Source: an uncultured Candidatus Saccharibacteria bacterium (GTDB lineage Bacteria; Patescibacteriota; Minisyncoccia; Phycocordibacterales; CAIRYW01). Taken from it: a stretch of DNA of 64,000 nucleotides. The stretch is from positions 28,731-92,730 of the forward strand of contig CAYLQP010000003.1 in the NCBI GenBank assembly GCA_964386665.1. The letters run 5' to 3'. Below, piece by piece: positions 1 through 54,972 of this stretch. The translations under genes and the position numbers were made by a program. The notes beneath the pieces are model-generated. The model was not told where the DNA came from, made no database searches, and saw only the letters and a list, made by a program, of their open reading frames with translations. Each line of letters begins with the position of its first letter. Within the stretch, counting starts at the first letter, position 1.

Positions 1-1269
1 ATCATAAGAAAAGTCGATAGTAAGTTTTGAGAGCGCGACGTTTGGAGTTACTTCTGTTACTACTGTTTGAACAAGCTCTTTCAGATCGAAATCAACGAAA
101 TCGTATTTCATTCGTCCTTGTTCAATACGTGTAATATCGAGATAATCTCCTACAATAACTACTAGCGCTTGCGTTGATTTGAAGATAGTTTCTATTGCTT
201 CTTTTAATTCTGAAGTAAGTTTACCGAAGTCTCCCTCAAGAAGCATTGAAGCATATCCCTTGATCGCTGTAAGCGGTCCTCGTAGTTGGTGAGATGCAAG
301 AGAGATGAACTCAGTCTTTTGTTCGTCGAGTTCCTTGAGTCGTCGGTTTGATTCTTCGAGTTTTTTGTTTGTTATATTTAATTCTTTTCTGGCTTCACTT
401 TCTTTTTTAATCGAACGAGTGAGAATCATTACAAAAATAATCGACATAAAGACCGTAATGACGGTCAAAACTAATCCGACAATATTTTTCGCAAAGAAAA
501 GCTCTGAAGCAACCAAAACAACAAGTACATATGCAATAAGTTGCTGTGACCACAAACGTAAATTAAATAGATTGAGACGAGAAATCGTAAATACAATAAT
601 AAGAAGGAAAACTGGTATCGCAAAGAGTCCAAAAAGCAAAATTTCATAGACACCTGTTTGACCTGCAATATAACCCGTTATTGAGAAAGTAAGTAGAAGC
701 AATAACAGACTTGAACCAATCAACAAAATTACACTCTTTTCTTTTGGCTGTTTTCTTAAAGTAAAAACAGTAGAAATAATAATCAAAAACATTATCAATA
801 TCTCTACACCTACTCTATATTTACTTAAGAAAGAACTATCTGTAGCTTCACAAACAGGATGATAAAAATCAATAATTGACAACCCTCTAATGGTTATATA
901 AAAAGCCGGCAAGGACAAAATAATAATCAACTTTTTTGCAATTTTATTGAAAGAGGGGTTATCAATAAGATTTGTAAAAAAATAAAAACTAAATAAAAAT
1001 GCAACAATCTCAAAATAATCAAGAACAGACCACCAAGCCACTATCAAATCATAATTATTAGATGCCCAAGTTACAAGATCACCAATAAGCCATAAAATTA
1101 AAAAACCAATAAAAAAAGAAAAAGAGATGTGAAGTGTTTGCTTATTTTTTTGACTAAGAACGTAAATACCTATAATTAAAAGAATAAATACAGGAACCAA
1201 GTGGGTGTAATAAGCAATAGGTCTTACTGCTGATGCGGTTGCTAAACATGTATTAATTAATTCTTGCAT
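1..1269 (-). CDS. Sensor histidine kinase, partial; the C-terminal catalytic part runs off the window edge
   Basis: Minus-strand translation from the ATG at 1269 gives about 210 aa of polytopic membrane domain, then a HisKA dimerisation/H-box (…EFISLASHQLRGPLTAIKGYASML…). It reads out of the window without a stop, so it is absent from the ORF track. The 305..649(+) and 471..668(-) ORFs lie inside it out of frame. Confidence 0.6.
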   Translation of the reverse strand, partial: MQELINTCLATASAVRPIAYYTHLVPVFILLIIGIYVLSQKNKQTLHISFSFFIGFLILWLIGDLVTWASNNYDLIVAWWSVLDYFEIVAFLFSFYFFTNLIDNPSFNKIAKKLIIILSLPAFYITIRGLSIIDFYHPVCEATDSSFLSKYRVGVEILIMFLIIISTVFTLRKQPKEKSVILLIGSSLLLLLLTFSITGYIAGQTGVYEILLFGLFAIPVFLLIIVFTISRLNLFNLRLWSQQLIAYVLVVLVASELFFAKNIVGLVLTVITVFMSIIFVMILTRSIKKESEARKELNITNKKLEESNRRLKELDEQKTEFISLASHQLRGPLTAIKGYASMLLEGDFGKLTSELKEAIETIFKSTQALVVIVGDYLDITRIEQGRMKYDFVDFDLKELVQTVVTEVTPNVALSKLTIDFSYD

Positions 1270-2104
1270 TTTTGATAGATTCTATATGATTAAATATATC
1301 ATCATTGTAACAAAACCAAAAATTCTCTCCTTCAATATCTGTGGGTTCAAGTGCAACTACGAGAGGTTTTAATTTAAATAAATTCTTAGTTTTTATAAAA
1401 TTTAATAAAAAGACCTGGTCAGTAAATCTTTTTTCTTTGCCTGTGAGGCAGAAATTTTCAAATAAAATATTATTTTGAACAAAAAGATTCATAACATAAT
1501 TATAATATTGTTCTGGTTTTTTTCCTACAATATTAAGCCAGGGTGAAATATCAAAAAAATTAGGCTGAGTATGTTTTGAATGTAATTGAAAAATTTTATG
1601 ATGAAAATCAACTAAAGATTGCCCCCACAAAGTCTCTACCTCAGATATTTTTTTACCGTCAAATTTATGAAAATCAATTACATTAATATTCCTTTTTTCT
1701 AAATTCTTTTTTTTGTAACCTAAATAAAAAGACAATCTAGCTAATGCTAATTTCATTGGGCTATTGGTTGTAAATTTATCTTCGAAATACTCTAAAAATA
1801 AATTAGAAACACCAAAACCATCTGATGCAGCTAAGAAACGTAAATTCTCAAAATTTGGAGTTGCAACCTGCCGAAACAAAACAAGTCTACCTTTGGGATC
1901 TAAAAACGGTTCTGGTATCCCAACTTTTTTAAAAAAACATTCTACTTTTTTCTTTAATCCAGAATCCTGTTGACGTTGATGGAGTTCTTTTATAGCTTGA
2001 TCAACGTCAGTATATACAAACTCATCAAATGCTTTTCGGTCATTCATTAATTTGTTTCGCCGCCAGTAGTATTCTATTGTGCTTCTAATATTATTCCAGA
2101 ACAT
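1253..2104 (-). CDS. Hypothetical protein (283 aa)
   Basis: Long AT-rich ORF with no recognisable motif. Its stop overlaps the HK start by 17 nt. Confidence 0.45.
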   Translation of the reverse strand: MFWNNIRSTIEYYWRRNKLMNDRKAFDEFVYTDVDQAIKELHQRQQDSGLKKKVECFFKKVGIPEPFLDPKGRLVLFRQVATPNFENLRFLAASDGFGVSNLFLEYFEDKFTTNSPMKLALARLSFYLGYKKKNLEKRNINVIDFHKFDGKKISEVETLWGQSLVDFHHKIFQLHSKHTQPNFFDISPWLNIVGKKPEQYYNYVMNLFVQNNILFENFCLTGKEKRFTDQVFLLNFIKTKNLFKLKPLVVALEPTDIEGENFWFCYNDDIFNHIESIKNARIN

Positions 2105-2369: not shown

Positions 2370-2445
2370 TTATATATTGACAAGTATTGTTTTTTAATGT
2401 TATTCTGTGTCCAGAATACTGTTATTTGACAACACTTTTCCTACT

Positions 2446-3015
2446 ATGATTATTTCACTCACCGGACCATCTGGTGCAGGTAAGGAGCACTTAAAAAAAG
2501 CCCTCCTGCAAAGATTTGTCACACTAAAAGAACTCTGCTGGACTACGACTCGTTCGTTACGCCCAGAGGAGTCTCAGGGTGTCACGCGTGAAAGTATTTC
2601 TAGACAAGAGTTTGATGAATTGGTGCAGGCTGACGAATTCATGTTCGTCCAGCAAGTATTCAATAATTCATATGGAATTCGTAAACATTTTTTGCGAACT
2701 GAATCAGGATTTTTCCTGACCGAATTTCATATTGAAAACCTGATACTCGCTCACTCGCAAGAGCTGTGTCCGGTAACCATCGGACTTATCCCTCAGAGCA
2801 TCGAGTTTCTGAAGGAACGGTTGAAACGAAGAGGAACGGAATCTGCGGAAGAAATTGCAGATCGCCTGTCCTCGGCCAAGAAAGAAGTCTCACTCATTAA
2901 CCAGCACAGACATTTATTCTCCCTTCTTGTAAAATTTTCGGGAGCAAACGAACACGCTGTCGCTGACATTGTCTCAGAATTCCTCAAACCTCACATCACT
3001 CCAGCAACCCCATGA
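2446..3015 (+). CDS. gmk: Guanylate kinase
   Basis: P-loop GPSGAGK directly after Met (MIISLTGPSGAGK) and a TTTRSLRPEE…G motif typical of GMP kinases. The ORF track offers an alternative GTG start at 2407. The gene lies in a GC-rich (~48%) block. Confidence 0.75.
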   Translation: MIISLTGPSGAGKEHLKKALLQRFVTLKELCWTTTRSLRPEESQGVTRESISRQEFDELVQADEFMFVQQVFNNSYGIRKHFLRTESGFFLTEFHIENLILAHSQELCPVTIGLIPQSIEFLKERLKRRGTESAEEIADRLSSAKKEVSLINQHRHLFSLLVKFSGANEHAVADIVSEFLKPHITPATP

Positions 3016-4169
3016 ACAAACTCCAAACTTCTGTTGGGGGTATCACATTTGAGACCCCGCTTCTACTCGCGTCTGGCTACATCACAGAAACACCAGACTT
3101 CTGCCTACGTTCGAAGCGATTCGGTTGTGCAGGTATGGTGACACGCTCTCTCAAGGAGCATGTGCCACCAGAACGATCACGGGTCCCATCACCACGTTAC
3201 AGCATCTTCGGTCAAACATCGATGCTCAACTGTGAATGGGGCAACGAGCATCCTTGGACCAACTGGAGAGATGGTTGGGCCGATAAAGTCAGATCTTCTG
3301 GCAATCGCCTGATTATTTCCTTCAGTGGAAGAGACATTGCAGGATGTGCAAACTTGATCGGAGCATTCGCTGAACAAGCAGATGCTTTCGAGATTAATGT
3401 GTCCTGCTCTCATTCGGGAGCTTTGCACGGTAATCTCAATCTTGACTTTGATCATCTTCGCGAACTTCTCCGAACCATCAGACCAATCACAAAAATTCCA
3501 ATCTGGCTCAAATTGTCTTACTCACCCATCGTGGTGGAGATGGCAAAAGTTGGCCAGGAGGAAGGCGCGGATGCCATAGTCTGCACCAACACGATTGGAC
3601 CTGGTCTACTCATCGATATTGAAACTGGCCTCCCAAAGGTTGGAATCAAAGGCGGTGCAGGTGGAGTTTCAGGCCCAGCGATTTTCCCAATCGCCATGCG
3701 CTGTGTCTATGAAATCAGTCAGGCAGTTACCATTCCTGTGGTTGGTGTCGGTGGCATATCCAGTGCTGAAGACGTCCTACAGATGATGATGGTTGGTGCC
3801 TCCGCTGTGCAACTTTACACATTGCCAGCACTCAAAGGTCCACGGTCGTTCAAAGCGATCAAAGAAGGTCTCATCAGTTTTCTCGATACTCACACTCAAT
3901 ACGGAAGCTTGCATGACATCGTTGGTCTAAGCCATAATAAGGCTAAGTCCCATCGGTTTATCGCACCTATTCCTACAGTATCAATCGACAAGTGCACAGG
4001 GTGTGGCATTTGTGTTTCAAGTTGTGCTTTCGATGCAATCAAACTCACCAAAGGTAGTGAGGGTCCGAAAGCAGAAATAAAAAGTAATTGCACAAGCTGT
4101 AACGCATGTCTCGGGGTATGCCCACCAGAACTTAATGCAATATCAACAACATTCACCAACCATGGCTAA
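3012..4169 (+). CDS. Dihydroorotate/dihydropyrimidine dehydrogenase family flavoprotein with C-terminal 2x[4Fe-4S] ferredoxin domain (PreA-like)
   Basis: Class-1 DHOD-like TIM-barrel motifs (…GGISSAEDVLQMMMVGASAVQLYT…) followed by two CxxCxxCxxxCP clusters (CTGCGICVSSC, CTSCNACLGVCPP). The ATGA start overlaps the gmk stop, indicating translational coupling. Confidence 0.65.
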   Translation: MNKLQTSVGGITFETPLLLASGYITETPDFCLRSKRFGCAGMVTRSLKEHVPPERSRVPSPRYSIFGQTSMLNCEWGNEHPWTNWRDGWADKVRSSGNRLIISFSGRDIAGCANLIGAFAEQADAFEINVSCSHSGALHGNLNLDFDHLRELLRTIRPITKIPIWLKLSYSPIVVEMAKVGQEEGADAIVCTNTIGPGLLIDIETGLPKVGIKGGAGGVSGPAIFPIAMRCVYEISQAVTIPVVGVGGISSAEDVLQMMMVGASAVQLYTLPALKGPRSFKAIKEGLISFLDTHTQYGSLHDIVGLSHNKAKSHRFIAPIPTVSIDKCTGCGICVSSCAFDAIKLTKGSEGPKAEIKSNCTSCNACLGVCPPELNAISTTFTNHG

Positions 4170-4422
4170 AAATAAGAAGAAAATATTCCCAATCGAGGTG
4201 TGTTGCACGGGGTGTAACTCTGTGCTTTACGAATACAACAAAGAGGGGGCCGGCTCTCTCGTGAAGTGCTTTGTGAGTGGTATCACCAAGGACCATACCA
4301 AAGGTGACCTGTGTTGTCAGAAGTGCGGAACCCAATTCTGCAGGCTCGGACAAATCGGACACCGTCCGATCCACAAAATTATCCAAGGAAAAGTGTTCAC
4401 CAAGGGCCATTGCCCGAAGTGA
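4162..4422 (+). CDS. Small Cys-rich zinc-ribbon protein
   Basis: MAKNKKK…CCTGCNS…CCQKCG: two Cys pairs typical of a zinc ribbon. A strong terminator follows. Confidence 0.4.
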   Translation: MAKNKKKIFPIEVCCTGCNSVLYEYNKEGAGSLVKCFVSGITKDHTKGDLCCQKCGTQFCRLGQIGHRPIHKIIQGKVFTKGHCPK

Positions 4423-4430
4423 TCAAGGAG

Positions 4431-4467
4431 GGTGACAGAGCAATCTGTCACCCTCTATTTTTATTTA
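4431..4467 (+). terminator. Rho-independent terminator
   Basis: Perfect 10-bp stem GGGTGACAGA/TCTGTCACCC with 4-nt loop, then a T-run (ctatttttatttat). Confidence 0.65.
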
Positions 4468-5067
4468 TAAATACCTTTTCTCTTCAAAATACCCTTTCTC
4501 AAAACTTTTGTAATCAAAGTTAATATTTGCTTCCCTGTTTAATGTATTCACATATTCAAAGAAATCATCCTTTGAGAAAACTTTTAAATTCAATTCGTCA
4601 CAAACTTGTTTGATAGATTTTTCTGCTTCGGGAGCACCTTCTGGTGAAGAAACTATCTCTGCTTCAAAAAAGAAACTATGATTTGGTACTTCTACAAGTG
4701 CAAACTCTATTCCCTTGTAATCATAGACCATACTATTACGAACACAGAGTACCCCCCTTTCATGTCCGAGCTCTCCAAACACCTTTACAAGTGATTCAAA
4801 TTTACCAGACTCTGTCTTTATTGATACCTCTTCTCTACTTTCTGTTCCACCCCATGATCCTAGCTTGAGTATTATCTCTGGTACACCGTTTGTCTCTCGT
4901 ATTCTTATGTCCTTAGTCCTGTTTTCCATTCCAGAAGAATAGTCGATAAGCACCCTCTCCTTCTTCCCTTTAAAAGTACCATTATTTGATAAAAAGGCAC
5001 TTAATCTATCCATCTCATCTTTAGTAAGAAGTCCTCTGATTTCTACTTCAATATCTTTATTACTCAT
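4465..5067 (-). CDS. CYTH-domain protein (class IV adenylate cyclase / triphosphatase-like)
   Basis: N-terminal IEVEIRGLL (ExExK/R β1 signature of CYTH) and acidic clusters later. Size (200 aa) is consistent with the family. Confidence 0.4.
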   Translation of the reverse strand: MSNKDIEVEIRGLLTKDEMDRLSAFLSNNGTFKGKKERVLIDYSSGMENRTKDIRIRETNGVPEIILKLGSWGGTESREEVSIKTESGKFESLVKVFGELGHERGVLCVRNSMVYDYKGIEFALVEVPNHSFFFEAEIVSSPEGAPEAEKSIKQVCDELNLKVFSKDDFFEYVNTLNREANINFDYKSFEKGYFEEKRYL

Positions 5068-8049: not shown

Positions 8050-8466
8050 ATGGTAAACGACTTTCAAACATGGTGCTTAGGCCGACATATGGCACAAGCA
8101 ACCGCAATGTTGCTCACCGATTCACCAAACGAACCTCATCTCGTGCTCCTGCATGGTCAAGGCAATCCAATTCTTCCGTGGGGTGACCTCCCTGCATCGA
8201 TTCCCTACGGGTCTGTCACCATCAAACCGGATGTGAGATGGGCAATTGGGAACAGTCTGGTCAGCTTCAAAACCTTTTGGACAGAGGCAGTAGCACGACA
8301 CCATCGAGACGGTGCAGCAATACACGGCACAAAAATATCGGTTGAATTAATCGGAACGTCAATTGGGAACAGTGCAATATTAACTGCCCCTAAAACCACT
8401 GACAGTAATGGCCGCTGGACGCTCAGTGGTCATGTCGTGATCATATTAAGATCAATTGGTTACTAA
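8050..8466 (+). CDS. Hypothetical protein in a GC-rich block of foreign composition (138 aa); a non-coding alternative is not excluded
   Basis: About 50% GC against a ~35% background. ORFs are open on both strands. There is an internal 14-bp direct repeat (caattgggaacagt at ~8248 and ~8358, giving AIGNS/SIGNS at protein level). A + strand terminator lies immediately 3'. Confidence 0.35.
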   Translation: MVNDFQTWCLGRHMAQATAMLLTDSPNEPHLVLLHGQGNPILPWGDLPASIPYGSVTIKPDVRWAIGNSLVSFKTFWTEAVARHHRDGAAIHGTKISVELIGTSIGNSAILTAPKTTDSNGRWTLSGHVVIILRSIGY

Positions 8467-8490
8467 CTCGGTTCGCCGAGTTTTTTTTAT
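8465..8490 (+). terminator. Rho-independent terminator
   Basis: ctcgg-ttcg-ccgag hairpin followed by T8. Confidence 0.6.
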
Positions 8491-8506
8491 TTCCCAAAAA
8501 CTATTG

Positions 8507-8545
8507 CCTAACAACCCAAGGCCTAAAAAGTTAGTAGCTAACCTA
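8507..8545. repeat. Short intergenic repeat (family member E)
   Basis: cctaacaacccaaggcctaaaaagttagtagctaacct shares gcctaaaag.ta and tagctaacct with copy D. Confidence 0.4.
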
Positions 8546-9619
8546 CAGCCCCTCCTCTCTCAACTCCTCCACGAGCTTTCGCGATTGTTTTGAAAGTTTG
8601 TTTGGAGTTTTGATATGTATATGGATCAAGATATCTCCACGACCGTTTCCATGAGGCACTCCTTTTCCTCTTACCTTAAGCACATCGAGATGTTTGGTTC
8701 CTTCGGGAATACTCACCACTATATTGCCATCAAGTGTTTCAAGTCCTATCTCTGCCCCAAGGAGCGCGTCCGTTAGTTTGATTTCGAGAATGGTTTCAAG
8801 ATTGAAACCTGCCTTTTTAAACACCTTACTTGGTTTGACATAAATCTTGATAAATAAATCTCCATTTTGTCCTCCACGTACCGCTTCACCTCGTCCAGTT
8901 ACTCGAAGCATTTCTCCATGTTCAATCCCTGAAGGAATCTGTACTTCAATATCTTCACTTTGTTTGTGGACTCCTGCACCATGACAGACACCACACTTAT
9001 TTTTTGGAATTGCACCCACACCAAAACAACTATCACACACACGCTCACTTGCCACTTGTCCGAAGATAGATCGTTTCATTTCTCGAATGACACCCTGACC
9101 ATTACAATGTGTACACGTATTCATTTGTGAGCCAGCTTCTGCCCCGTTTCCATTACAATTCTTGCAACTTGAAACTTTGTTGAGGTGGATTTTTTTTGCG
9201 ACACCAAACACTGCGTCTTTGAAATCAAGTTCAACGTCAACTTGGATATCATTCCCCTTTTTTGTTTTTTGTCTGCGACCTCCGCCTCCGCCGAAAATAT
9301 CCCCAAAAATATCCCCAAGATCTCCCATATCAAACTGAAACCCACCACCTTGTCCTCCAAATCCACCAAAGTCAAACCCTTCGAAACCAGCTCCTCCACT
9401 CGATCCTGCTCCTGTGTCTCCAAACCGATCATACTGAGCTCGTTTTTGCGTATCAGAAAGCACAGTATATGCTTCACTTACTTCCTTGAAGCGTTTGTCA
9501 TCTCCACCCTTCTTGTCTGGATGGTGTTCGTGCGCAAGTTTTCTAAACGCTTTTTTGATTTCGTCTTGGGAAGCGTTCTTAGAAACACCTAGTATATTAT
9601 AGTAGTCTTTTTTGTTCAT
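8543..9619 (-). CDS. dnaJ: Chaperone DnaJ
   Basis: J-domain (YYNILGV…HPDK), a G/F-rich linker, and four CxxCxGxG zinc-finger repeats. Confidence 0.9.
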
Positions 9620-26301: not shown

Positions 26302-27567
26302 ATGACACAAATACACATTGATGGCTTTCATACTGACGGATCAGGCATGACAAAGAAAGATGATTATACGTATCACATCTGGAACGGACTTCCTGGTGAA
26401 GATGTAGAAATTGAAATATCAAAAAAGAAACGACGTCATATCGAAGCTCTTGCAACAAACATACTTAATCCATCTCCAGTTCGAATCGAACCACTCGAAA
26501 AGGACTTTGTTTCTTCGAGTCCGTGGCAAATTATTGAGCTTGAAACAGAACTTCTCTTCAAGCGAAGCATCACCACCGAAGTATTCAAACAACTCCCTGA
26601 CATCATCGAGTTGTTTGCAAAAGAAAAGGTGTTTACAGATAGCACCCGTCTGCACTACCGACACAAGATGGAGTATCATATTTATACCGATGAAGAAAAT
26701 AACTTCCATCTTGGTATCTTTGGACGAACCGAAAAGAAAAAGATTCCTATCCCGCCAAGTATCCTCGCAACCGACGCACTCAATCTCACAGCATCAAAGA
26801 TCATTACATGGCTTGATGAAGTTAAATTCCCTCGCCCACTACTTAAAACCATTATCATTCGAAGTAATACAAAAGGAGAAACTGTTGCAGGGCTTTTTGT
26901 AAAAACACACGAAATCGAACAACTTCGCACTAACCCCTTTGATAACCTCACTATTTATTATTCAGAGCCCAAGAGCCCCGCTTCTGTTGCAACAGAACTT
27001 CTTGTTGAAGCAAAGAAACATACACTTACGCAGTCACTTCTTGGTATGCCGTTTACGTATGGGCTTATGAGTTTTTTTCAGATAAATCCTTCTGTGTTTG
27101 AAGCAACCCTTCGAGACATAGAACAGTTTATCGAAGCAGGTTCTTCAGTTGTGGACTTTTATTCTGGAGTTGGAACCATAGGACTTTCTCTTCGCAAGAT
27201 CGCAAAAGATATCGTTTTGGTAGAAGAAAACAGTGATGCAGTTACGTTTGCAAAACAAAATATCGAAAACAACAACATACAAAACGCGCAGGCGTTTTTG
27301 GGTCAAGCGCATACACTTCGAGAATACATCAATGCCGAAAGCATTCTTATCGTCGATCCACCACGAGGAGGACTTCATCCCAAGGTGATCAAAAAAATCA
27401 TCGAAACACTTCCTCCAAAACTCATTTATCTTTCTTGTAATATCGAAAGCCAAGCCCGTGATCTCCAAGACATCCTTCCTTTTTACAAACCAGTTTTTGC
27501 CAAGCTATACAACTACTTCCCTATGACTCCACATGTTGAGAGTTTGATTGTGTTGGAGAGAAAATAA
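26302..27567 (+). CDS. RNA (uracil-5)-methyltransferase, RlmD/RumA/TrmA family
   Basis: SAM-MTase motifs …DFYSGVGTIGL…, VDPPRGG and the catalytic LSCNIESQARDL. Confidence 0.75.
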   Translation: MTQIHIDGFHTDGSGMTKKDDYTYHIWNGLPGEDVEIEISKKKRRHIEALATNILNPSPVRIEPLEKDFVSSSPWQIIELETELLFKRSITTEVFKQLPDIIELFAKEKVFTDSTRLHYRHKMEYHIYTDEENNFHLGIFGRTEKKKIPIPPSILATDALNLTASKIITWLDEVKFPRPLLKTIIIRSNTKGETVAGLFVKTHEIEQLRTNPFDNLTIYYSEPKSPASVATELLVEAKKHTLTQSLLGMPFTYGLMSFFQINPSVFEATLRDIEQFIEAGSSVVDFYSGVGTIGLSLRKIAKDIVLVEENSDAVTFAKQNIENNNIQNAQAFLGQAHTLREYINAESILIVDPPRGGLHPKVIKKIIETLPPKLIYLSCNIESQARDLQDILPFYKPVFAKLYNYFPMTPHVESLIVLERK

Positions 27568-27958: not shown

Positions 27959-28930
27959 TTATTCCTTGAGTTTAGATACATACTCTCTCAAAATCCCCAT
28001 CGCTTCTTTTGCATTTGGTGCATCCATTAGCGCGATCCGTAGATCGCTTGCGTTTTCGAAGCTTTGGATATAACTTTTGAAATGTTTTTTCATAAGGGCA
28101 AAGTTTTTTGTCGTCCCTAAAATCTCATCAAAAAGTTCTATATGAAGAAGAAGTGCTTCAAGCTGAGATTTGAGATCCTTTGCTTTGCCTTCTTTGCTAA
28201 ATAGAAATGGATTTCCAAATATTCCACGTCCTATCATCACTCCATCACATCCGGTTTCTTTGACTCGTTCTCGTGCTTCATCGAGGTTTTTGACATCTCC
28301 GTTACCGAGAATAAGTGTTTGTGGTGCTAATTCATCTCGAAGACCTACTACTTGTTTTACAAACTCCCAGCGTGCAGGAACTTTGGACATTTCTTTGCGT
28401 GTTCGAGCATGGATGGTTAATGCCTGAATGTCTGCTTTAAGTAAAATTGGAATCCATTTTTCAATCTCAACTGTGTTGTAACCAATTCGAGTTTTGACAG
28501 ATAAAGGAAGAGTTGGCGCACCACGTTTTGCCGCTTCGATTACACTGAGCGCAAGTTCTGGATTTTTTATCATTGCAGAACCGCTTTTTTGTTTTTCGAT
28601 ACTTTTGTCAGGACAACCCATATTGATATCAATTCCATCAAACCCGAGTTTCTCTACAAGAGCCGCTGCAATCTCCATATGTTCTGGATTTGAGCCAAAA
28701 AGTTGAGCGACAATTGGTCTTTCGCTTTCATCGTATTCGAGGTCTTTGAGAAGCTTTTTCTTCCCTTCTTCGGTTGCACGTACAAGCCCGTCCGCTGAAA
28801 CAAATTCAGTCCACGTGACGTCTGGCTTACCGTATGTGGCAATCACTTTTCGAAAAGACGCATCTGTCACATCCGCCATCGGCGCAAGGACAAAAAAAGG
28901 TTTTTTTAATTTTGACCAAAAGTTTTTCAT
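27959..28930 (-). CDS. dus: tRNA-dihydrouridine synthase
   Basis: …VLAPMADVTD…RKV… and the TIM-barrel Dus signature. Confidence 0.85.
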   Translation of the reverse strand: MKNFWSKLKKPFFVLAPMADVTDASFRKVIATYGKPDVTWTEFVSADGLVRATEEGKKKLLKDLEYDESERPIVAQLFGSNPEHMEIAAALVEKLGFDGIDINMGCPDKSIEKQKSGSAMIKNPELALSVIEAAKRGAPTLPLSVKTRIGYNTVEIEKWIPILLKADIQALTIHARTRKEMSKVPARWEFVKQVVGLRDELAPQTLILGNGDVKNLDEARERVKETGCDGVMIGRGIFGNPFLFSKEGKAKDLKSQLEALLLHIELFDEILGTTKNFALMKKHFKSYIQSFENASDLRIALMDAPNAKEAMGILREYVSKLKE

Positions 28931-40820: not shown

Positions 40821-41747
40821 ATGACACAAAATTCAAAACCAAAAATAATTGTTATCCTTGGACCAACTGCCAGTGGAAAAAGTGATTTAGCTGTGCATAT
40901 TGCAAAGCAATGTAACGGTGAAGTTATTTCTGCTGATTCAAGACAAGTATATAAAGGCCTTGATATTGGGAGTGGTAAAATCACAAAAAAAGAAATGCAA
41001 GGTGTCCCCCATCACTTACTTGATGTTGTGTCACCTAAACAAATCTTTTCTGTTGAAGATTTTAAGATCAAAGCACAAGAAGCGATACAGACTATTTTAA
41101 ATAAAGGAAAAGTTCCAATCATCTGCGGAGGGACTGGTTTTTATATTGATACACTGGTCAAGAATCTGGTTTTTCCTGAAGTCAAACCAAATCCAGCATT
41201 TAGAACAAAGAATCTAGAATTTACTGCTGAGAAACTTTACAAAAAATTACAAAAACTTGATCCAAAACGAGCAAAAACAATAGACCCTCAAAACAAAGTC
41301 CGCCTTATCAGAGCGCTTGAGATTGCAATCTCCCTTGGTAAGGTTCCAAAAATAACTTCAAAGCCGCTCTATGATCCACTTTATATTGGGATCAGTTGGG
41401 AAAAAGATGCGTTACAAAAACGTATTGAAAAAAGACTTCTCTCACGCCTTAAACAAGGAATGATAACAGAAGCTAAACATCTCCATGCAAAAGGACTTTC
41501 CTTTAAACGTATGGAAGCTCTTGGGCTTGAATATCGATACCTTGCAAGATATCTCAAAAAAGAAATAACAAAAAAAGAGTTAATCACAGAACTGACCCTT
41601 AAGATTTATCAGTATGCAAAACGCCAAATACAATGGTTTAAACGAGATACTGACATACACTGGTTTACAAGTAATGAACTCGATAATGTGCCCACCATCA
41701 TAACAACATTCCTAAAGTCTAATAGTGAGAAACCAAGCCTATTCTAA
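40821..41747 (+). CDS. miaA: tRNA dimethylallyltransferase
   Basis: P-loop ILGPTASGKS…ISADSRQVYKGLDIGSGK…. Confidence 0.85.
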   Translation: MTQNSKPKIIVILGPTASGKSDLAVHIAKQCNGEVISADSRQVYKGLDIGSGKITKKEMQGVPHHLLDVVSPKQIFSVEDFKIKAQEAIQTILNKGKVPIICGGTGFYIDTLVKNLVFPEVKPNPAFRTKNLEFTAEKLYKKLQKLDPKRAKTIDPQNKVRLIRALEIAISLGKVPKITSKPLYDPLYIGISWEKDALQKRIEKRLLSRLKQGMITEAKHLHAKGLSFKRMEALGLEYRYLARYLKKEITKKELITELTLKIYQYAKRQIQWFKRDTDIHWFTSNELDNVPTIITTFLKSNSEKPSLF

Positions 41748-49311: not shown

Positions 49312-49602
49312 TATGCGCGACATAAAGTGAATGAAATACAGAAGTGATCTTTCTTATTTCTGAGCCAAGGGACTAATCGGGTAACAACCCCGATACCCTG
49401 CGTCGAGGCTGTTGATTTAAAAACCATTATGTTATAAACGTTTTTCTTCAAAACACAACAAAAACACAAATTTGACTACTTAACAAATAAATAGTATAAT
49501 AAGTCCAGTCCAAAAGAGTGTCTTTGTGTTGCCTTCCTGGCACCACATCGTAACAACTTACGCTCTTTGACACACTACTCAACGAAAAAACCAACTCGTC
49601 AC

Positions 49603-50886
49603 ATGAAAATTATCTTCTACCTCCTCTTTGCAGCCATCGTGCTGCTTCTAGGAACGACTCTTAGTCTGCTCATTTGGGCAGGCATGTACGTCTTCCGTAC
49701 CTCAACTTCAATGGGGTTTACATACCTCATAGGAGTAACGATCTCCGCAACATTCCTCATTATCCTCGGATGGTGGTGGTATAAAACGGAGCTGCCAAAA
49801 ATTTGGCGCTCCCTTGCCGAGAAAGAAAAGTTCATCACACTGGCTCCAGAAAAACATTTCGTCCCAATTGAAAGAGCGGGTCGGTTTGTTTGGGGATTCA
49901 AATGTGAAGGAGGACTAATCATTCTCCTAATTCCACGCCCCTCAAGACAAGCAGGAGACCCTTGCTTGATAACTGTAATGCCAGAAAATATCTTTTCCGG
50001 GCTTGACTTAATCTTGTACCACTATTTCGTGGGACAGGGTTACGTCTGGCTAGGTTTTGATGCAAGTTCACAGGGGACAACTCGTGTAGGATCTCTTGCA
50101 ATACCCAAGGCAAGGTTGCAAAAAAGAGAGGGTCTTGATGAAGTTCAGATCAAAGTGGAGCCCATCAAGGCTCTTCGACTCACCTTCCAACGGTACGTCG
50201 TTGTGTCTGAAATCGAAACCACTGACGGACACAAGCTTCGTCTTTTGGCCCTTGCTATAGTAACTGTCACGGACCCCTACCTTGCTTGGTATGGTCTTGG
50301 AGGGAAAGCATACGAAACCCTCGATACGATAGTGGCAACACTAATTCGTACAGAGGGGGAAAAACACTCACTCGTCTCGATGTATCAGTCTGGTGCAAAC
50401 GGACAGGATGAAATCGAAGAGGAGATAAAAGAAGGATCCATAGAGACTGAAAGAAAATTAGGAATGAAGATCACTCTTACCATTGAAGAATGGGAAGATG
50501 ATGCTGGTCCTGGATTTCGAATCTTCATTGGTCGGGTCCAAACCGCTCAACAAGAGACGGCTAACCAGATCGCAGAGATGGAAATGCGAATCCGTATCGC
50601 AGAAAAGAAGGGAGATGAGCTCGCAGCCCAAGCACTCCTTGAAGTGGAACGAGCAAAGCTTGAAATACAGCGAAAGCTCGCAAACGAAGAGGAATACAAG
50701 GCTCTTCTTGCCCTCGCAGGAGGAAAAGAAGATGCTGTCATACACATAGTTCTCAAACAACAGCTTGGAGACGATCTCTACAAGAAGTATGTCGACGCTG
50801 ATGCACTAAAGCACACAAAGGTGCAAGTGCTTGGCACTAACGCAACCCCACTCATTAACCTACCACAACCACCAACTCAACCATGA
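49603..50886 (+). CDS. SPFH/band-7 (flotillin/stomatin-like) membrane protein
   Basis: Two N-terminal TM helices, an SPFH core (…LAIVTVTDPYLAWYGLG…) and a C-terminal EA-rich coiled coil (…AEMEMRIRIAEKKGDELAAQALLEVERAKLEIQ…). The region is GC-rich (~50%). Confidence 0.55.
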   Translation: MKIIFYLLFAAIVLLLGTTLSLLIWAGMYVFRTSTSMGFTYLIGVTISATFLIILGWWWYKTELPKIWRSLAEKEKFITLAPEKHFVPIERAGRFVWGFKCEGGLIILLIPRPSRQAGDPCLITVMPENIFSGLDLILYHYFVGQGYVWLGFDASSQGTTRVGSLAIPKARLQKREGLDEVQIKVEPIKALRLTFQRYVVVSEIETTDGHKLRLLALAIVTVTDPYLAWYGLGGKAYETLDTIVATLIRTEGEKHSLVSMYQSGANGQDEIEEEIKEGSIETERKLGMKITLTIEEWEDDAGPGFRIFIGRVQTAQQETANQIAEMEMRIRIAEKKGDELAAQALLEVERAKLEIQRKLANEEEYKALLALAGGKEDAVIHIVLKQQLGDDLYKKYVDADALKHTKVQVLGTNATPLINLPQPPTQP

Positions 50887-51704
50887 ATCCAGTCGTAATA
50901 ACCATTCTTGCATTCGCAGTGCCACTTCTGGTGGTACTGTGGTTTGCAATAAAATGGTTCAGAGGCCTTACATACCGCTCTTCCTCTGGAGCTGGTAACA
51001 GGTCCAAATGGACCATCCTGTCCATCGCGACCCTTGTGCTGGCGACGGCCTTTGGCGGATGGATAGGGCTTAGCCTTTCGGGGCTGGCATTGTCCTTTGT
51101 GTGGATGCACTTTATGCCAGGGCAAACCTGGTTCAAGTGGTCGACAGCAGCTTGCGGACTCATACTGCTTATGTCTCTAGTGCTCAACCAAAGCGCCAAG
51201 ACCAAAGCAGCGAAAGAAACGCGGATAGCGGAGGCAAGCCAAGGCTTCCGCAAGTCTGAGCTTATCGCTCGTGCGAAGGCACGAGGCAAGATAGTGAACG
51301 AGGACGCTGCCATCTGGGAAGGCACCTTAGAGACGTTTGATGTGGCAACACATCGATACGTTCCAGGATGGTCTGGGCAAGAGGTGGAAATCCTTGTCTG
51401 GGAAGAAGATGAATTCATCCTGCAGATGGAAATGCAGGATGGAAGCATACTCCACTTGGAGTATGACGAAGCATCCATTGGTCCCCAAAAGGGCGAGTGG
51501 ACGTGGTCATCGAGGATCCGGAGAGAGGAAGGAAGGTTTAGCCTCTCGACCGTATTGTCCGGACCGGCGTCGAGCAAGGGATTTGGTGGGATCATCACAG
51601 GTCTCCCACTCCCTAAAGGTCAAACAGGGGTGTTCCCGCCCCTGGAGTTCCGGTTCATCCCTAACCGGACACTTGCGGATGTAATCCGCAAGTTCGTTGA
51701 GTAG
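50883..51704 (+). CDS. Polytopic membrane protein translationally coupled to the SPFH gene (possible NfeD-like partner)
   Basis: ATGA overlap with the upstream stop. 3-4 N-terminal TM helices, then a ~170-aa soluble domain. Confidence 0.45.
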   Translation: MNPVVITILAFAVPLLVVLWFAIKWFRGLTYRSSSGAGNRSKWTILSIATLVLATAFGGWIGLSLSGLALSFVWMHFMPGQTWFKWSTAACGLILLMSLVLNQSAKTKAAKETRIAEASQGFRKSELIARAKARGKIVNEDAAIWEGTLETFDVATHRYVPGWSGQEVEILVWEEDEFILQMEMQDGSILHLEYDEASIGPQKGEWTWSSRIRREEGRFSLSTVLSGPASSKGFGGIITGLPLPKGQTGVFPPLEFRFIPNRTLADVIRKFVE

Positions 51705-52657: not shown

Positions 52658-53050
52658 TTATTGACAAGTAGCCTTGAAACTACCTCCCTGTGCTGCAAAC
52701 TGTGGTACTCCAAATGAATCGCCGAGACCAAAACTTGCAACAAAAATTTTGAGTATTCCCCAAATAGACACCATAAAGAAAAATCCAACGATTCCATAAA
52801 TCATCATTTTGTTTCCGGCTGACCGTTTTTCTTCATTATCTCCGTGACTAACATATTTGATAAGTCCCGTCAAAAACGCTCCAACTGCAATCACAACAAC
52901 AAAAGGAATAAAATCAAGAACAATTTTAACAAAAATACAAATAATCTCCTTAAAACTTGTTGGCGCAGCTGGCTTCCCTGTACTTTGAGCAAAAAGTAAA
53001 ACAGGAAGTGTTAGAAGTGTAATAATGAATGAAAAGAATATATGTTTCAT
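52658..53050 (-). CDS. VirB2/TrbC-like secreted membrane protein, paralog 3
   Basis: Start taken at the internal MKHIFF. Signal peptide …LLFA|QS, then …FIPFVVVIAVGAFLTGLI-KYVSHGDNEEKRSAGNK-MMIYGIVGFFFMVSIWGI…. Confidence 0.55.
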   Translation of the reverse strand: MKHIFFSFIITLLTLPVLLFAQSTGKPAAPTSFKEIICIFVKIVLDFIPFVVVIAVGAFLTGLIKYVSHGDNEEKRSAGNKMMIYGIVGFFFMVSIWGILKIFVASFGLGDSFGVPQFAAQGGSFKATCQ

Positions 53051-53051
53051 A

Positions 53052-53429
53052 TTATTTAAGTGGGAGATAGTTAGGGATAGCAGTATCAGTTGAAAAGAAA
53101 GTTCGAACCACCAGATTAGTAATCCCCCAGAAAGCAACCATCACAAACAATACAACGAGTCCATAGATCATCACGTGACGACCATTTTGCCTTGCTTCTT
53201 CGTCATCTCCCGATTTTATAAACTTAATAACACCAGCAAGAAATGTTAAAAGAGCCACTGCAATAAGGGCAGGAATAAACCCTTTCATATTCCCCCATGC
53301 GAAGGTAAAAAACACATCACTGATAGTTTCTGGTGTTGTGGGAGGAGTATAGTTTGGACCCACTGCACATGTAAGCAGAGGTGTTAAGAAAAATGTAAAT
53401 ACTAGTATGTGACTAAAATATTTTTGCAT
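53052..53429 (-). CDS. VirB2/TrbC-like secreted membrane protein, paralog 4 (possible lipoprotein signal LLTC)
   Basis: Start MQKYFSHIL; …FIPALIAVALLTFLAGVI-KFIKSGDDEEARQNGRH-VMIYGLVVLFVMVAFWGI…. Confidence 0.55.
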   Translation of the reverse strand: MQKYFSHILVFTFFLTPLLTCAVGPNYTPPTTPETISDVFFTFAWGNMKGFIPALIAVALLTFLAGVIKFIKSGDDEEARQNGRHVMIYGLVVLFVMVAFWGITNLVVRTFFSTDTAIPNYLPLK

Positions 53430-53849: not shown

Positions 53850-54218
53850 TTATGTTAATTGATTAACTGTTCCTTCGATAATTTTGAAGATAACCTTTGC
53901 TCCAAGAAGGACTGCGGTTCCTACCATCGCCCAGGTAATAGTTTTGCGTCCATTTGAAACCTTCTCTTCATCTCCTGCTGCAGTCACCAAAAGAAATCCT
54001 CCGTACATTATACCCAACACCGAGACAATAACTCCGAGTTGAATAAGTCCATCAACAATAGATGCAAAGAACCCTGAAAGACTAGTGGCTTCAATTGGAT
54101 TTTGGATTGTATTTGAATTTTTGCCCCCAGATGCTTCCGCTAATACAAACAAAGGAAAAACCCACAAGGTCAAAATTATAAATGATTTATTTTTAAAAAA
54201 TGTGAGTGTTTTTTTCAT
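53850..54218 (-). CDS. VirB2/TrbC-like secreted membrane protein, paralog 6
   Basis: Start MKKTLTFF. Signal peptide …FVLA|EA, then …LIQLGVIVSVLGIMYGGFLLV-TAAGDEEKVSNGRK-TITWAMVGTAVLLGAKVI…. Confidence 0.5.
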   Translation of the reverse strand: MKKTLTFFKNKSFIILTLWVFPLFVLAEASGGKNSNTIQNPIEATSLSGFFASIVDGLIQLGVIVSVLGIMYGGFLLVTAAGDEEKVSNGRKTITWAMVGTAVLLGAKVIFKIIEGTVNQLT

Positions 54219-54228
54219 ACGTATTTCA

Positions 54229-54972
54229 TTAACCCAATAAACTAAATCCTTCTTTTGCCCCAAGAACCGTAAGTAATGTTTTTACAAGAAGCCATCCCAT
54301 AAGCACAAACAAGATTCCCATAAACGTTTTACTAAAAATGCCGTGGGCTTGCTCTATTTTACCACCATTTCCAAAAGCTGTCATATAAAGAAAACCTGCA
54401 TACGCAAACGCAATGGCTGACAATGATGCAGCAATATAAACCAAAAATTCAATAATACGGTTTATTAAAATAATAATATCTCTCCAACCACATCCTCCAG
54501 CATCTTTCCCAAACGTTGGATTATCTACGCAGTTTGGGGGTACTATCTGGAAATTTTCGTTCACAGGATCTCCTGTATTTTTGATATCAAGCTCTATTCG
54601 ATCTTCTTGAGAGAGACCTGGTACAAATGAAGGATCAGTTAATTCTTCATCCGCATAACTACTAAATTCATTTATAAAATCTTCTCTAAATCCTGCGTTA
54701 CTTTCATACAAACCATCAAGTTCGTCTGGATCATATTGACTATAATCATCGTGTGAATTAATAAAATCAATTAATAATTCACGAATAAGCGCTCCTTGCG
54801 GATCAGTTGGCTCATCTCCAAATGAATAATTTTCAAAATACCAAAGAACAGTTTCTTGAGGAAGTGTAGAGATTTGTTGTGCCTTTATATGAGACGAAAC
54901 TACTCCTCCTCCAACAAAAAAGAGGGTTGCAAAAAAAATGGAATATATCTTTTTATTTATTGTATTCATCAA
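54229..54972 (-). CDS. Larger secreted acidic protein carrying the same C-terminal two-helix hairpin module, paralog 7
   Basis: Signal peptide, a ~150-aa D/E-rich ectodomain, then …IEFLVYIAASLSAIAFAYAGFLYM-TAFGNGGKIEQAHG-IFSKTFMGILFVLMGWLLV…. Confidence 0.5.
   Translation of the reverse strand: MMNTINKKIYSIFFATLFFVGGGVVSSHIKAQQISTLPQETVLWYFENYSFGDEPTDPQGALIRELLIDFINSHDDYSQYDPDELDGLYESNAGFREDFINEFSSYADEELTDPSFVPGLSQEDRIELDIKNTGDPVNENFQIVPPNCVDNPTFGKDAGGCGWRDIIILINRIIEFLVYIAASLSAIAFAYAGFLYMTAFGNGGKIEQAHGIFSKTFMGILFVLMGWLLVKTLLTVLGAKEGFSLLG

Follow-up and report, generated by a model that had tools for sequence, protein, structure and literature searches.

A compact operon of three genes, here called the cassette, lies near one end of a 64,000-nucleotide stretch of DNA from an uncultured Candidatus Saccharibacteria bacterium (contig CAYLQP010000003.1), which is referred to as the window. 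The cassette encodes a kinase-like protein with the guanylate kinase (Gmk) fold, a flavoprotein related to dihydroorotate dehydrogenase (DHOD) and dihydropyrimidine dehydrogenase (DPD), and a small predicted zinc protein. With a probability of about one half, it is a vertically inherited operon of the Patescibacteria whose products form a probably ferredoxin-linked complex that acts on the C5=C6 bond of a uracil-type ring, likely in a phosphorylated substrate. New here are an enzyme of the DHOD/DPD family with new conserved partners and a compositional offset that is kept across the whole phylum.

The three genes are coupled on the forward strand and occupy positions 2446–4422 of the window (Table 1). 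They make up a GC-rich block ending in a strong terminator, as a reading of this DNA from its letters alone (the sequence-only reading) had described. The compositional step is sharp: in 200-nt windows, GC is 27–34% outside the block and 41–53% inside, with an upstream edge at about 2400 (27–29% before it) and a downstream edge at about 4440 (back to 31–34%). GC is 0.473 for the module and 0.379 for the whole window, so that the earlier contrast with the background holds but its figure of about 35% for the genome does not. The excess is also synonymous. GC content at third codon positions (GC3) is 0.426, 0.440 and 0.609 in the kinase-like, flavoprotein and mini-protein genes, respectively, compared with 0.280 ± 0.036 (maximum 0.353) in 23 Pfam-confirmed host genes of the window; the corresponding z-scores are +4.1, +4.5 and +9.2. 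Genic overlap accompanies this common composition. The stop codon of the kinase-like gene overlaps the flavoprotein start in an ATGA (3012–3015), and the ATG of the mini-protein gene at 4162 overlaps the flavoprotein stop TAA (4167–4169) to give an 8-nt overlap. The ATGA and the 385-aa flavoprotein are as the sequence-only reading had them. For the kinase-like gene, a public gene call on an identical contig and the homologues favour a start at ATG 2446 over GTG 2407, and the probable start of the mini-protein gene is ATG 4162, giving 86 aa.

The cassette is widely conserved. The flavoprotein has more than 2,600 homologues, hundreds of which are about 382 aa long and 55–65% identical, and all informative source names among them are of Patescibacteria. 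A scan of species-representative genomes yielded 36 loci, including two short, probably misbinned contigs and one archaeal DHOD outgroup; the named sources are Paceibacterota, Uhrbacteria, Kerfeld-, Kaiser- and Taylorbacteria, and Saccharibacteria/Nanosyncoccaceae. The three-gene operon was found in all 35 Patescibacteria loci examined. Wherever one of these has sequence on the side concerned, the kinase-like gene stands immediately upstream of the flavoprotein gene (31–58% identity) and the mini-protein gene immediately downstream (44–72% identity). Spacing is equally strict: the gap between the kinase-like and flavoprotein genes has a median of 1 nt and is at most 10 nt in 31 of 32 loci, and that between the flavoprotein and mini-protein genes has a median of 8 nt and is at most 30 nt in 30 of 31. 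The flavoprotein of the window shares 55–70% identity with those of loci that bear the labels of different candidate phyla (Paceibacterota, Uhrbacteria, Saccharibacteria and others), and it is more conserved than its TruD and CYTH neighbours. In three differently built proteins, moreover, the kinase-like domain and the flavoprotein are fused: by read-through in P0030, through a linker of about 60 aa in P0175, and in a distant lineage in P0189 (246 bits). The pairing of a gmk-like gene with a PreA-like reductase had been remarked on as unusual; it is unusual, yet conserved and sometimes fused.

The cassette appears to be restricted to Patescibacteria. Two contigs of about 4 kb that bear other labels, L011 (Iainarchaeum) and L034 (Gammaproteobacteria), carry the cassette with TruD (L011 also with CYTH) between AT-rich flanks and are probably misbinned Patescibacteria contigs. 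Three further loci have a flavoprotein or kinase-like gene that is in pieces or interrupted by an in-frame stop (L033, 5471–7130; L040, 6001–7138; L036, 6001–7131); these broken genes may be frameshifts, assembly errors or pseudogenes.

From composition, horizontal acquisition had been suggested for the cassette. Comparison among genomes contradicts this: order and neighbours are the same across Patescibacteria classes, the cassette diverges together with its AT-rich neighbours, and the GC excess recurs in nearly every locus. Pairwise flavoprotein identity correlates with that of the neighbouring CYTH (Pearson 0.89) and TruD (0.86) proteins, and with that of its own kinase-like protein (0.90). 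The nearest relatives of the window (L033 and L007) are the same for cassette and CYTH, and the nearest neighbour by flavoprotein falls within the neighbours' top three in 15 of 24 loci against 3.1 expected, a concordance for which CYTH and TruD themselves give the comparison value of 17 of 24. Among close relatives, synonymous-codon identity is 0.59–0.62 in the cassette and 0.60–0.63 in the neighbours. With Pearson values of 0.86–0.89, shared relatives and equal synonymous divergence, discordance with flanking genes of the kind that marks a genomic island was not found; neither was patchy presence, as the cassette is in all related loci. What the cassette does share with genomic islands is its atypical composition (GC3 z = +4.1 to +9.2).

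The compositional excess itself is a regular property of the operon. In 33 of 35 loci the flanks are poorer in GC than the cassette; the mean differences in favour of the cassette are 7.7 points for GC and 10.6 for GC3. GC3 of the flavoprotein gene exceeds that of CYTH in 29 of 30 loci (mean +0.19) and that of TruD in 28 of 28 (+0.17), which amounts to a steady GC3 excess of about 0.15–0.19 over co-inherited neighbours. Cassette GC3 follows neighbour GC3 (0.28 + 0.70 × neighbour GC3, r = 0.69), all 24 pairs are positive (Wilcoxon p = 2e-5), and C- and G-ending codons are both up in nearly all synonymous families. An excess over the neighbours that recurs in almost all genomes cannot be put down to transfer events. 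Expression-linked codon bias was also rejected as its cause, since rpoA, S4, S13, L9, S1, dnaK and the aminoacyl-tRNA synthetase genes have the lowest GC3 in the window (0.22–0.29 for rpoA, S4, S13, L9 and dnaK). Amino-acid composition as the sole cause was rejected because GC3 itself is raised and codons ending in C or G gain in almost every synonymous family. The sequence-only reading had conceded that its island would dissolve if core genes were equally GC-rich, and the 23 host genes are not. What the GC island represents is a compositional offset at steady state, belonging to a transcription unit that is passed on vertically, and not unameliorated foreign DNA.

A recently acquired foreign island, its GC reflecting a GC-richer donor, would account for the sharp boundaries and the raised GC3, and this genome does contain compositional outliers, as another GC3-rich pair of genes in the window shows. 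A foreign island would leave unexplained the recurrence of cassette and neighbours together across classes, the co-divergence with AT-rich neighbours at the protein and synonymous levels, and a GC excess in 29 of 30 and 28 of 28 loci that tracks host GC3 with a constant offset. Mobility genes (integrase, transposase) and tRNA genes are absent from the cassette borders, the only tRNA in the window lying at 40.5 kb; the cassette was not found on viral contigs, and its named close homologues are all from Patescibacteria. A foreign origin is very improbable on these grounds. Two related candidates were discarded as well, phage carriage for want of any copy on viral contigs and a defence system for want of any PADLOC match.

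Within the DHOD/DPD family, the flavoprotein forms a clade of its own. It matches Pfam DHO_dh with 136 bits and, in addition, the 4Fe-4S dicluster (Fer4) families, against only 16 bits for Dus. In searches with the NCBIfam models of PyrD and PreA, no equivalog cutoff was reached. The best NCBIfam matches by E-value are PyrD subfamily 1 models, all of them below cutoff (TIGR01037, 178.6 against 270 bits; NF005574, 172.8 against 269; NF041011, 149.5 against 330), and the PreA model NF006183, which covers the whole length (residues 1–373), gives 154.5 against 335 bits. The clade is tight: in a library of 1.84 billion representatives, one full-length representative scores 587 bits, followed by 414, 350, 280 and 267, and below this lies a continuum of generic DHOD-plus-ferredoxin proteins at 150–220 bits. 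In the Protein Data Bank (PDB), the highest-scoring match to the family profile is pig DPD (116.6 bits), closely followed by DHOD 1B (111) and DHOD 1A (100); the flavoprotein stands about equally far from pig DPD and from class-1 DHOD. The DPD match spans the flavin mononucleotide (FMN) domain (533–848) and the Fe-S domain (919–1003).

Residue by residue, the likeness to DPD extends to the active site. With DPD numbering checked against the aligned sequence, N609, E611, N668, S670, C671, H673, K709 and N736 of DPD align in the A1 alignment with the invariant residues N73, E75, N129, S131, C132, H134, K167 and N193. T737 falls opposite position 194, where the A1 consensus has Ser and the window Thr and which is not on the A1 conserved list, and the equivalent of K574 is the invariant R45. 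We take N609, N668, S670, C671, N736 and T737 to be pyrimidine contacts or catalytic residues of DPD (C671 being the catalytic cysteine) and K574 to be the lysine of the FMN site. With these roles, the alignment places both the pyrimidine-contact asparagines and the catalytic cysteine of PreA and DPD in the flavoprotein. Eight further cysteines are invariant (C328, C331, C334, C338, C360, C363, C366 and C370) and make up two CxxCxxCxxxC motifs, so that an FMN barrel followed by a C-terminal Fe-S domain with two motifs is present, as in PreA and DPD. No PreT/PyrK-type partner binding NAD(P)H and flavin adenine dinucleotide (FAD) was found among the recurrent neighbours of the 36 loci, nor beside the cassette in the called genes of L001–L005. 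As no NAD(P)H-binding partner is encoded nearby, ferredoxin or another low-potential carrier is the likely redox partner.

That the flavoprotein is a canonical class-1B PyrD serving de novo pyrimidine synthesis is barely credible. The idea draws on the PyrD subfamily 1 models that lead the NCBIfam list by E-value and on the DHO_dh score, and it runs into the failure at every PyrD cutoff, the C-terminal 2×[4Fe-4S] domain in place of a PyrK partner, and a substrate motif (LNCEWGNE) that aligns with LNIELISE of DPD. Neither a PyrK partner nor a pyr context occurs among the recurrent neighbours, and the 64-kb window holds no gene for pyrimidine biosynthesis or salvage. The genomic background agrees with this: UMP synthesis is encoded in Microgenomatia and not in other classes of the Candidate Phyla Radiation (CPR), according to a freshwater CPR survey (PMC9166423). 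The sequence-only reading had held that the protein is unlikely to be a canonical PyrD and that CPR genomes generally lack de novo pyrimidine synthesis. The first of these claims is supported by the missed cutoffs and by the window, which was searched for other pyr genes, and the second by the survey, with Microgenomatia set apart.

The kinase-like protein is a member of the Gmk fold family. It matches Pfam Guanylate_kin (PF00625) with 61.1 bits, above the gathering cutoff of 25.2, and the top PDB matches to the kinase profile are all guanylate kinases (E about 3e-21). The Gmk equivalog cutoffs are missed (TIGR03263, 90.8 against 160.45 bits; NF011325, 73 against 263), and many members of the kinase-like family have no precomputed PF00625 match. 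The P-loop GPSGxGK, the phosphate-binding motif TTRxxR and the LID arginines are all kept; K13, R36, R39, R125 and R140 are invariant and R129 nearly so, and the P-loop lysine, phosphate arginines and LID arginines are thereby represented. The base pocket, in contrast, is predicted from alignment to be remodelled. Four true Gmks (2j41, 3tr0, 7u5f and the first GK domain of FAP42) served as the reference set and were compared in the motif contexts S-x-TTR, G-x-x-Y-x-F, [IL]-E-x-A and YG-T. The S, Y, F, E and T that they share are replaced in the kinase-like family by W32 (invariant), R48 (invariant), V/I, a hydrophobic residue and L/I, respectively. The PROSITE signature of Gmk, presumably T-[ST]-R-x2-[KR]-x2-[DE]-x2-G-x2-Y-x-[FY]-[LIVMK], matches the Staphylococcus aureus enzyme and none of 26 family members or three fusions, the signature tyrosine being an invariant arginine in the kinase-like family. 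The earlier name "gmk" was thus right as to fold family and over-called as to enzyme, given the missed equivalog cutoff and the changed pocket.

Two ordinary salvage functions might instead share one transcript: a divergent but real Gmk, and a ferredoxin-dependent PreA-type reductase of free uracil or thymine that serves catabolism or acts as an electron sink, with the zinc protein as an accessory or electron-transfer partner. The best PDB matches to the kinase profile, all of them guanylate kinases, fit this view, as do the Guanylate_kin score above its gathering cutoff, the lack of any other Gmk-like gene in the window or the loci, and the retention of all residues aligned with the free-base contacts of DPD. 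Furthermore, pathway annotation of the KEGG type gives guanylate kinase, as part of the purine pathway, in most CPR classes, namely in ABY1, Gracilibacteria and Paceibacteria and not in Microgenomatia (PMC9166423). The kinase evidence just described speaks to the contrary, with 90.8 bits against an equivalog cutoff of 160, a signature found in 0 of 26 members, and Gmk base-pocket residues that have given way to the family-invariant W32 and R48. Three differently built fusions would be unexpected for unrelated functions, and strict conservation of the three genes across classes speaks against chance pairing. This alternative is unlikely, though it deserves to be taken seriously.

The third product has no Pfam or NCBIfam family, and its source names are only of a generic zinc-finger kind. 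Five cysteines are invariant in its family (C15, C18, C36, C52 and C55), along with the motif NRP[AI]HKII.G[KR]V. The cysteine pattern noted earlier was correct in its CxxC knuckles, and its doubled "CC" occurs in this lineage only. An AlphaFold model (predicted local distance difference test score, pLDDT, 82.9) shows an all-beta domain of seven strands, on whose hairpins the CxxC knuckles sit: C15-x2-C18 would lie between strands 8–14 and 21–28, and C52-x2-C55 before strand 60–65. Two CxxC motifs on hairpins, as a predicted apical zinc site, are what the beta-tent fold requires, and the best structural matches of the model are beta-tent proteins. These matches are weak, and Foldseek gave no significant match in the PDB, so the beta-tent likeness is suggestive. 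"Zn-ribbon", the name first given to the protein, is fair for two CxxC knuckles and less so for a modelled domain of seven strands that is weakly beta-tent-like. A rubredoxin-type electron carrier is less likely, as the seven-strand domain of the model resembles ligand-binding beta-tent proteins instead.

Taken as a vertically inherited operon for one pyrimidine-directed complex, the cassette would function as follows. The three products would work together, and the flavoprotein would pass two electrons along a chain of low-potential partner (probably ferredoxin), Fe-S clusters, FMN and the C5=C6 bond of a uracil-type ring, in either direction. The Gmk-derived subunit, with ATP and phosphate binding and a new base pocket, would bind or phosphorylate the substrate. 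If this subunit handles the substrate, the latter is probably a nucleotide; a pyrimidine nucleotide is accordingly proposed as more probable than a free base. The zinc mini-protein would be an adaptor that binds a ligand or a partner and not an electron carrier. The likely role would be salvage or recycling of pyrimidine nucleotides in organisms unable to make them.

A bolder version of this proposal is held only tentatively and is on balance doubtful. It envisages a new three-subunit enzyme, made up of a Gmk-derived nucleotide-binding kinase, an FMN/[4Fe-4S] reductase of the DPD type and a new beta-tent-like zinc protein, that would handle pyrimidine nucleotides instead of free bases. It might, for instance, convert UMP or UDP to and from their 5,6-dihydro forms and so recycle modified nucleotides taken from host RNA. 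The enzyme would be functionally linked to TruD and CYTH, and selection or biased gene conversion would hold the operon at an equilibrium richer in GC than the remaining genome.

Several points weigh against the proposed complex. The nucleotide-level substrate is inferred solely from the kinase-like partnership, and ferredoxin as the electron donor is a guess from the absence of a partner gene. A pocket of the DPD type is known for free bases. There is no second Gmk-like gene in the 64-kb window or in the loci, and the kinase-like protein could be the real Gmk of the cell. The P0030 fusion needs no more than the loss of a stop codon and could be an artefact of assembly. A structural model of it is good in the kinase domain (pLDDT 86–98), poor in the flavoprotein half (predicted template modelling score 0.52) and gives no docking information. 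The window lacks a TruD gene, though CYTH is kept, and the link with TruD and CYTH may be conserved synteny without shared function. Finally, the literature searches turned up no account of the module.

The TruD and CYTH neighbourhood bears on a further reading. TruD-family (Pfam 142 bits) and CYTH-family genes lie downstream of the cassette and convergent to it in about 25 loci, and CYTH adjoins the cassette in 30. In most loci the two are adjacent or overlapping (for example, ORFs 8073–9143 and 7456–8073 of L016), which suggests that they form a separate operon of their own. In L006 (7487–9325) all five genes are co-directional and CYTH precedes TruD, with adjacency to the cassette kept. Across the 36 loci, the only recurrent neighbours are CYTH, TruD, X277 and a histidine kinase. 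The cassette might therefore be imagined as an RNA-level complex that modifies uridine, that is, a non-Dus dihydrouridine synthase for tRNA or rRNA operating with TruD and the CYTH phosphohydrolase, its zinc protein and kinase-like subunit binding RNA or an RNA 5ʹ end. Beyond the conserved convergent pair and its persistence where rearranged, a faint Pfam Dus similarity in family members lends something to this idea. It is nonetheless improbable. The active-site motifs fit DPD and DHOD far better (DHO_dh, 136 bits; Dus, 16 bits), the flavoprotein has no recognisable RNA-binding domain, the 64-kb window is without TruD, and a canonical Dus (221 bits) is already encoded there. A role as a replacement for Dus was rejected on the strength of this gene. 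With a TrmA/RlmD-like uracil-5 methyltransferase and MiaA also present in the window, the host has standard uridine-modifying enzymes besides the cassette.

The transcription unit that carries the proposed complex has recognisable ends. Upstream of it are TTGACA boxes at 2377 and 2426. The first belongs to a promoter-like site that is plausible as the operon promoter, as a candidate only, for such matches do not exceed shuffle level (23 found, 23.8 expected). Both boxes had been reported earlier as upstream promoter elements; they are present, and the one at 2426 cannot serve as reported because it lies too near the ATG for a −35 element. It may rather be an operator or an mRNA element. A box of the form TT[GC]A[CA]AAC (for example, TTTGACAAC) recurs 20–36 nt before the kinase-like start codon across cassette loci (the window, L007, L008, L011, L012, L016, L018–L021, L023, L033, L038 and L039). 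With a pattern defined post hoc from the same data, exact matches occur in 7 of 33 cassette leaders and 0 of 253 control upstream regions, and matches with at most one mismatch in 18 of 33 and 20 of 253. A riboswitch leader was rejected, the leaders being short, without an Rfam match and marked only by this box. In most other loci, a strong AAAGGAGG Shine-Dalgarno sequence precedes the kinase-like gene. It is absent in the window and its three closest relatives (L006, L007 and L033), where a pyrimidine-rich CTTTTYC tract takes its place (2430–2446 in the window), which suggests another mode of translation initiation in this lineage. At the other end, a stem-loop at 4427–4456, with 7 GC pairs in its 13-bp stem, is followed by ATTTTTATTT; the hairpin and T-run bear out the very strong terminator of the sequence-only reading. 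A conserved RNA inside the operon was rejected, because Rfam gave terminator-like noise only and synonymous sites are no more conserved than those of the neighbours.

Apart from the cassette, the window is made up of the ordinary core genes of an AT-rich, Patescibacteria-type genome. They include rpoA; the genes of ribosomal proteins S4, S13, L9 and S1; dnaK, dnaJ and grpE; clpB; gyrA; topA; the Ala-, Ser- and Tyr-tRNA synthetases; a cell-division and cell-wall (dcw) cluster; and Dus, the TrmA-like methyltransferase and MiaA. Core-gene GC3 is 0.22–0.35, with the ribosomal genes lowest. The CYTH-like protein next to the cassette is 61% identical to the L007 copy and weakly matches TIGR00318; Pfam CYTH gives 19–26 bits on its homologues. 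On the other side, the 283-aa protein matches nothing in Pfam or PADLOC, and its gene has the lowest GC in the region (0.28). Its family of 277–283-aa proteins is near the cassette in five loci (the window, L015, L023, L026 and L038), a weak association. The second GC3-rich pair consists of two overlapping ORFs just upstream of the mraZ-mraW dcw cluster, with GC3 z-scores of +4.4 and +8.7. Both have long hydrophobic N-terminal stretches that look transmembrane-like by eye in the translations; neither matches Pfam or PADLOC, and viral contigs yielded no copy of the 439-aa protein. Two small ORFs a little further on match a Pfam type IV secretion system pilin family at 30–33 bits.

Table 1. Features of the cassette and of the surrounding window (positions are those of the window).
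Feature	Position	Strand	Description
Kinase-like gene	2446..3015	+	Guanylate-kinase-fold P-loop protein, 189 aa, starts MIISLTGPSGAGK
Flavoprotein gene	3012..4169	+	DPD/PreA-like, 385 aa; DHO_dh TIM barrel (FMN) and C-terminal 2×[4Fe-4S] domain
Mini-protein gene	4162..4422	+	Predicted zinc protein, 86 aa, two CxxC knuckles
Promoter-like site	2377..2406	+	Candidate; TTGACA, 18-nt spacer, TG-extended TATTCT; 10/12 matches in consensus scan
Leader motif TTGACAAC	2426..2433	+	Family pattern TT[GC]A[CA]AAC, 20 nt upstream of the kinase-like ATG
Intrinsic terminator	4427..4466	+	13-bp stem, 4-nt loop, T-run
CYTH-like gene	4465..5067	-	Triphosphate tunnel metalloenzyme family; convergent neighbour; GC3 0.284, as in ordinary host genes
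Gene of 283-aa protein	1253..2104	-	No family; 277–283-aa family within about 3 kb of the cassette
TrmA/RlmD-like gene	26302..27567	+	Uracil-5 methyltransferase
Dus gene	27959..28930	-	Canonical dihydrouridine synthase
MiaA gene	40821..41747	+	
Second GC3-rich pair	49567..51704	+	Overlapping ORFs, 439 aa and 273 aa; GC3 0.44 and 0.59
Pilin-family ORF	52658..53137	-	Type IV secretion system pilin family
Pilin-family ORF	53850..54263	-	Type IV secretion system pilin family

Patescibacteria, or CPR bacteria, account for a large share of bacterial diversity and cannot make nucleotides, and how they acquire and handle them is poorly understood. The cassette would couple redox chemistry on the pyrimidine ring with a nucleotide kinase put to new use, and it is a concrete, expressible target for work on pyrimidine salvage or redox balance in this group. 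Its proteins carry public names such as "4Fe-4S binding protein", "dihydroorotate dehydrogenase", "guanylate kinase" and "hypothetical", so that metabolic reconstructions may miscount the cassette as pyrD and gmk. Additionally, it illustrates that an abrupt local rise in GC and GC3 may persist stably in a single operon that is handed down vertically throughout a phylum, so that composition by itself says little about horizontal transfer in this case.

Among known systems, each cassette protein has a recognisable relative from which it departs. The kinase-like protein shares with Gmk (EC 2.7.4.8) the fold family, the P-loop GPSGxGK, TTRxxR and the LID arginines. Unlike Gmk, it falls below TIGR03263, fails the signature in 26 of 26 members and has replacements at base-pocket positions, and its gene is always encoded with the flavoprotein and sometimes fused to it. 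The mini-protein model has a weak likeness to the beta-tent zinc proteins, which include the CULT domain of cereblon, Yippee/Mis18, MsrB, GFA and the C-terminal domain of RIG-I (PMC4287342).

The flavoprotein can be set beside three families. Dus, like the proposed enzyme, is an FMN TIM-barrel protein acting on a uracil ring, which it reduces at the C5=C6 bond, and the cassette adjoins the uridine-modifying TruD. The flavoprotein differs from it in its Pfam Dus score of 16 bits, in having no helical tRNA-binding domain and in possessing Fe-S motifs; Dus is not known to contain Fe-S clusters. Class 1 DHOD (PyrD 1A and 1B) is similar in the DHO_dh domain (136 bits), the cysteine of the active-site loop, the asparagines of the substrate pocket and PDB matches of 100–111 bits. 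The flavoprotein nevertheless scores below the family cutoffs, comes with no PyrK or pyr operon, has a fused ferredoxin domain and carries substrate-loop motifs (SC-x-H and LN-x-E) nearer to those of DPD. Domains IV–V of DPD, and PreA (YeiA) of PreT-PreA, come closest. They have the same order of an FMN TIM barrel and a 2×[4Fe-4S] domain, they provide the best PDB match (116.6 bits), and the residues aligned with N609, N668, S670, C671, H673, K709 and N736 are invariant, with Ser or Thr at T737. Unlike these enzymes, the flavoprotein has neither a PreT/GltD-like NAD(P)H/FAD partner nor N-terminal Fe-S domains, and it has an arginine at the K574 position. It belongs to a separate clade whose partners are a Gmk-like kinase and a zinc mini-protein.

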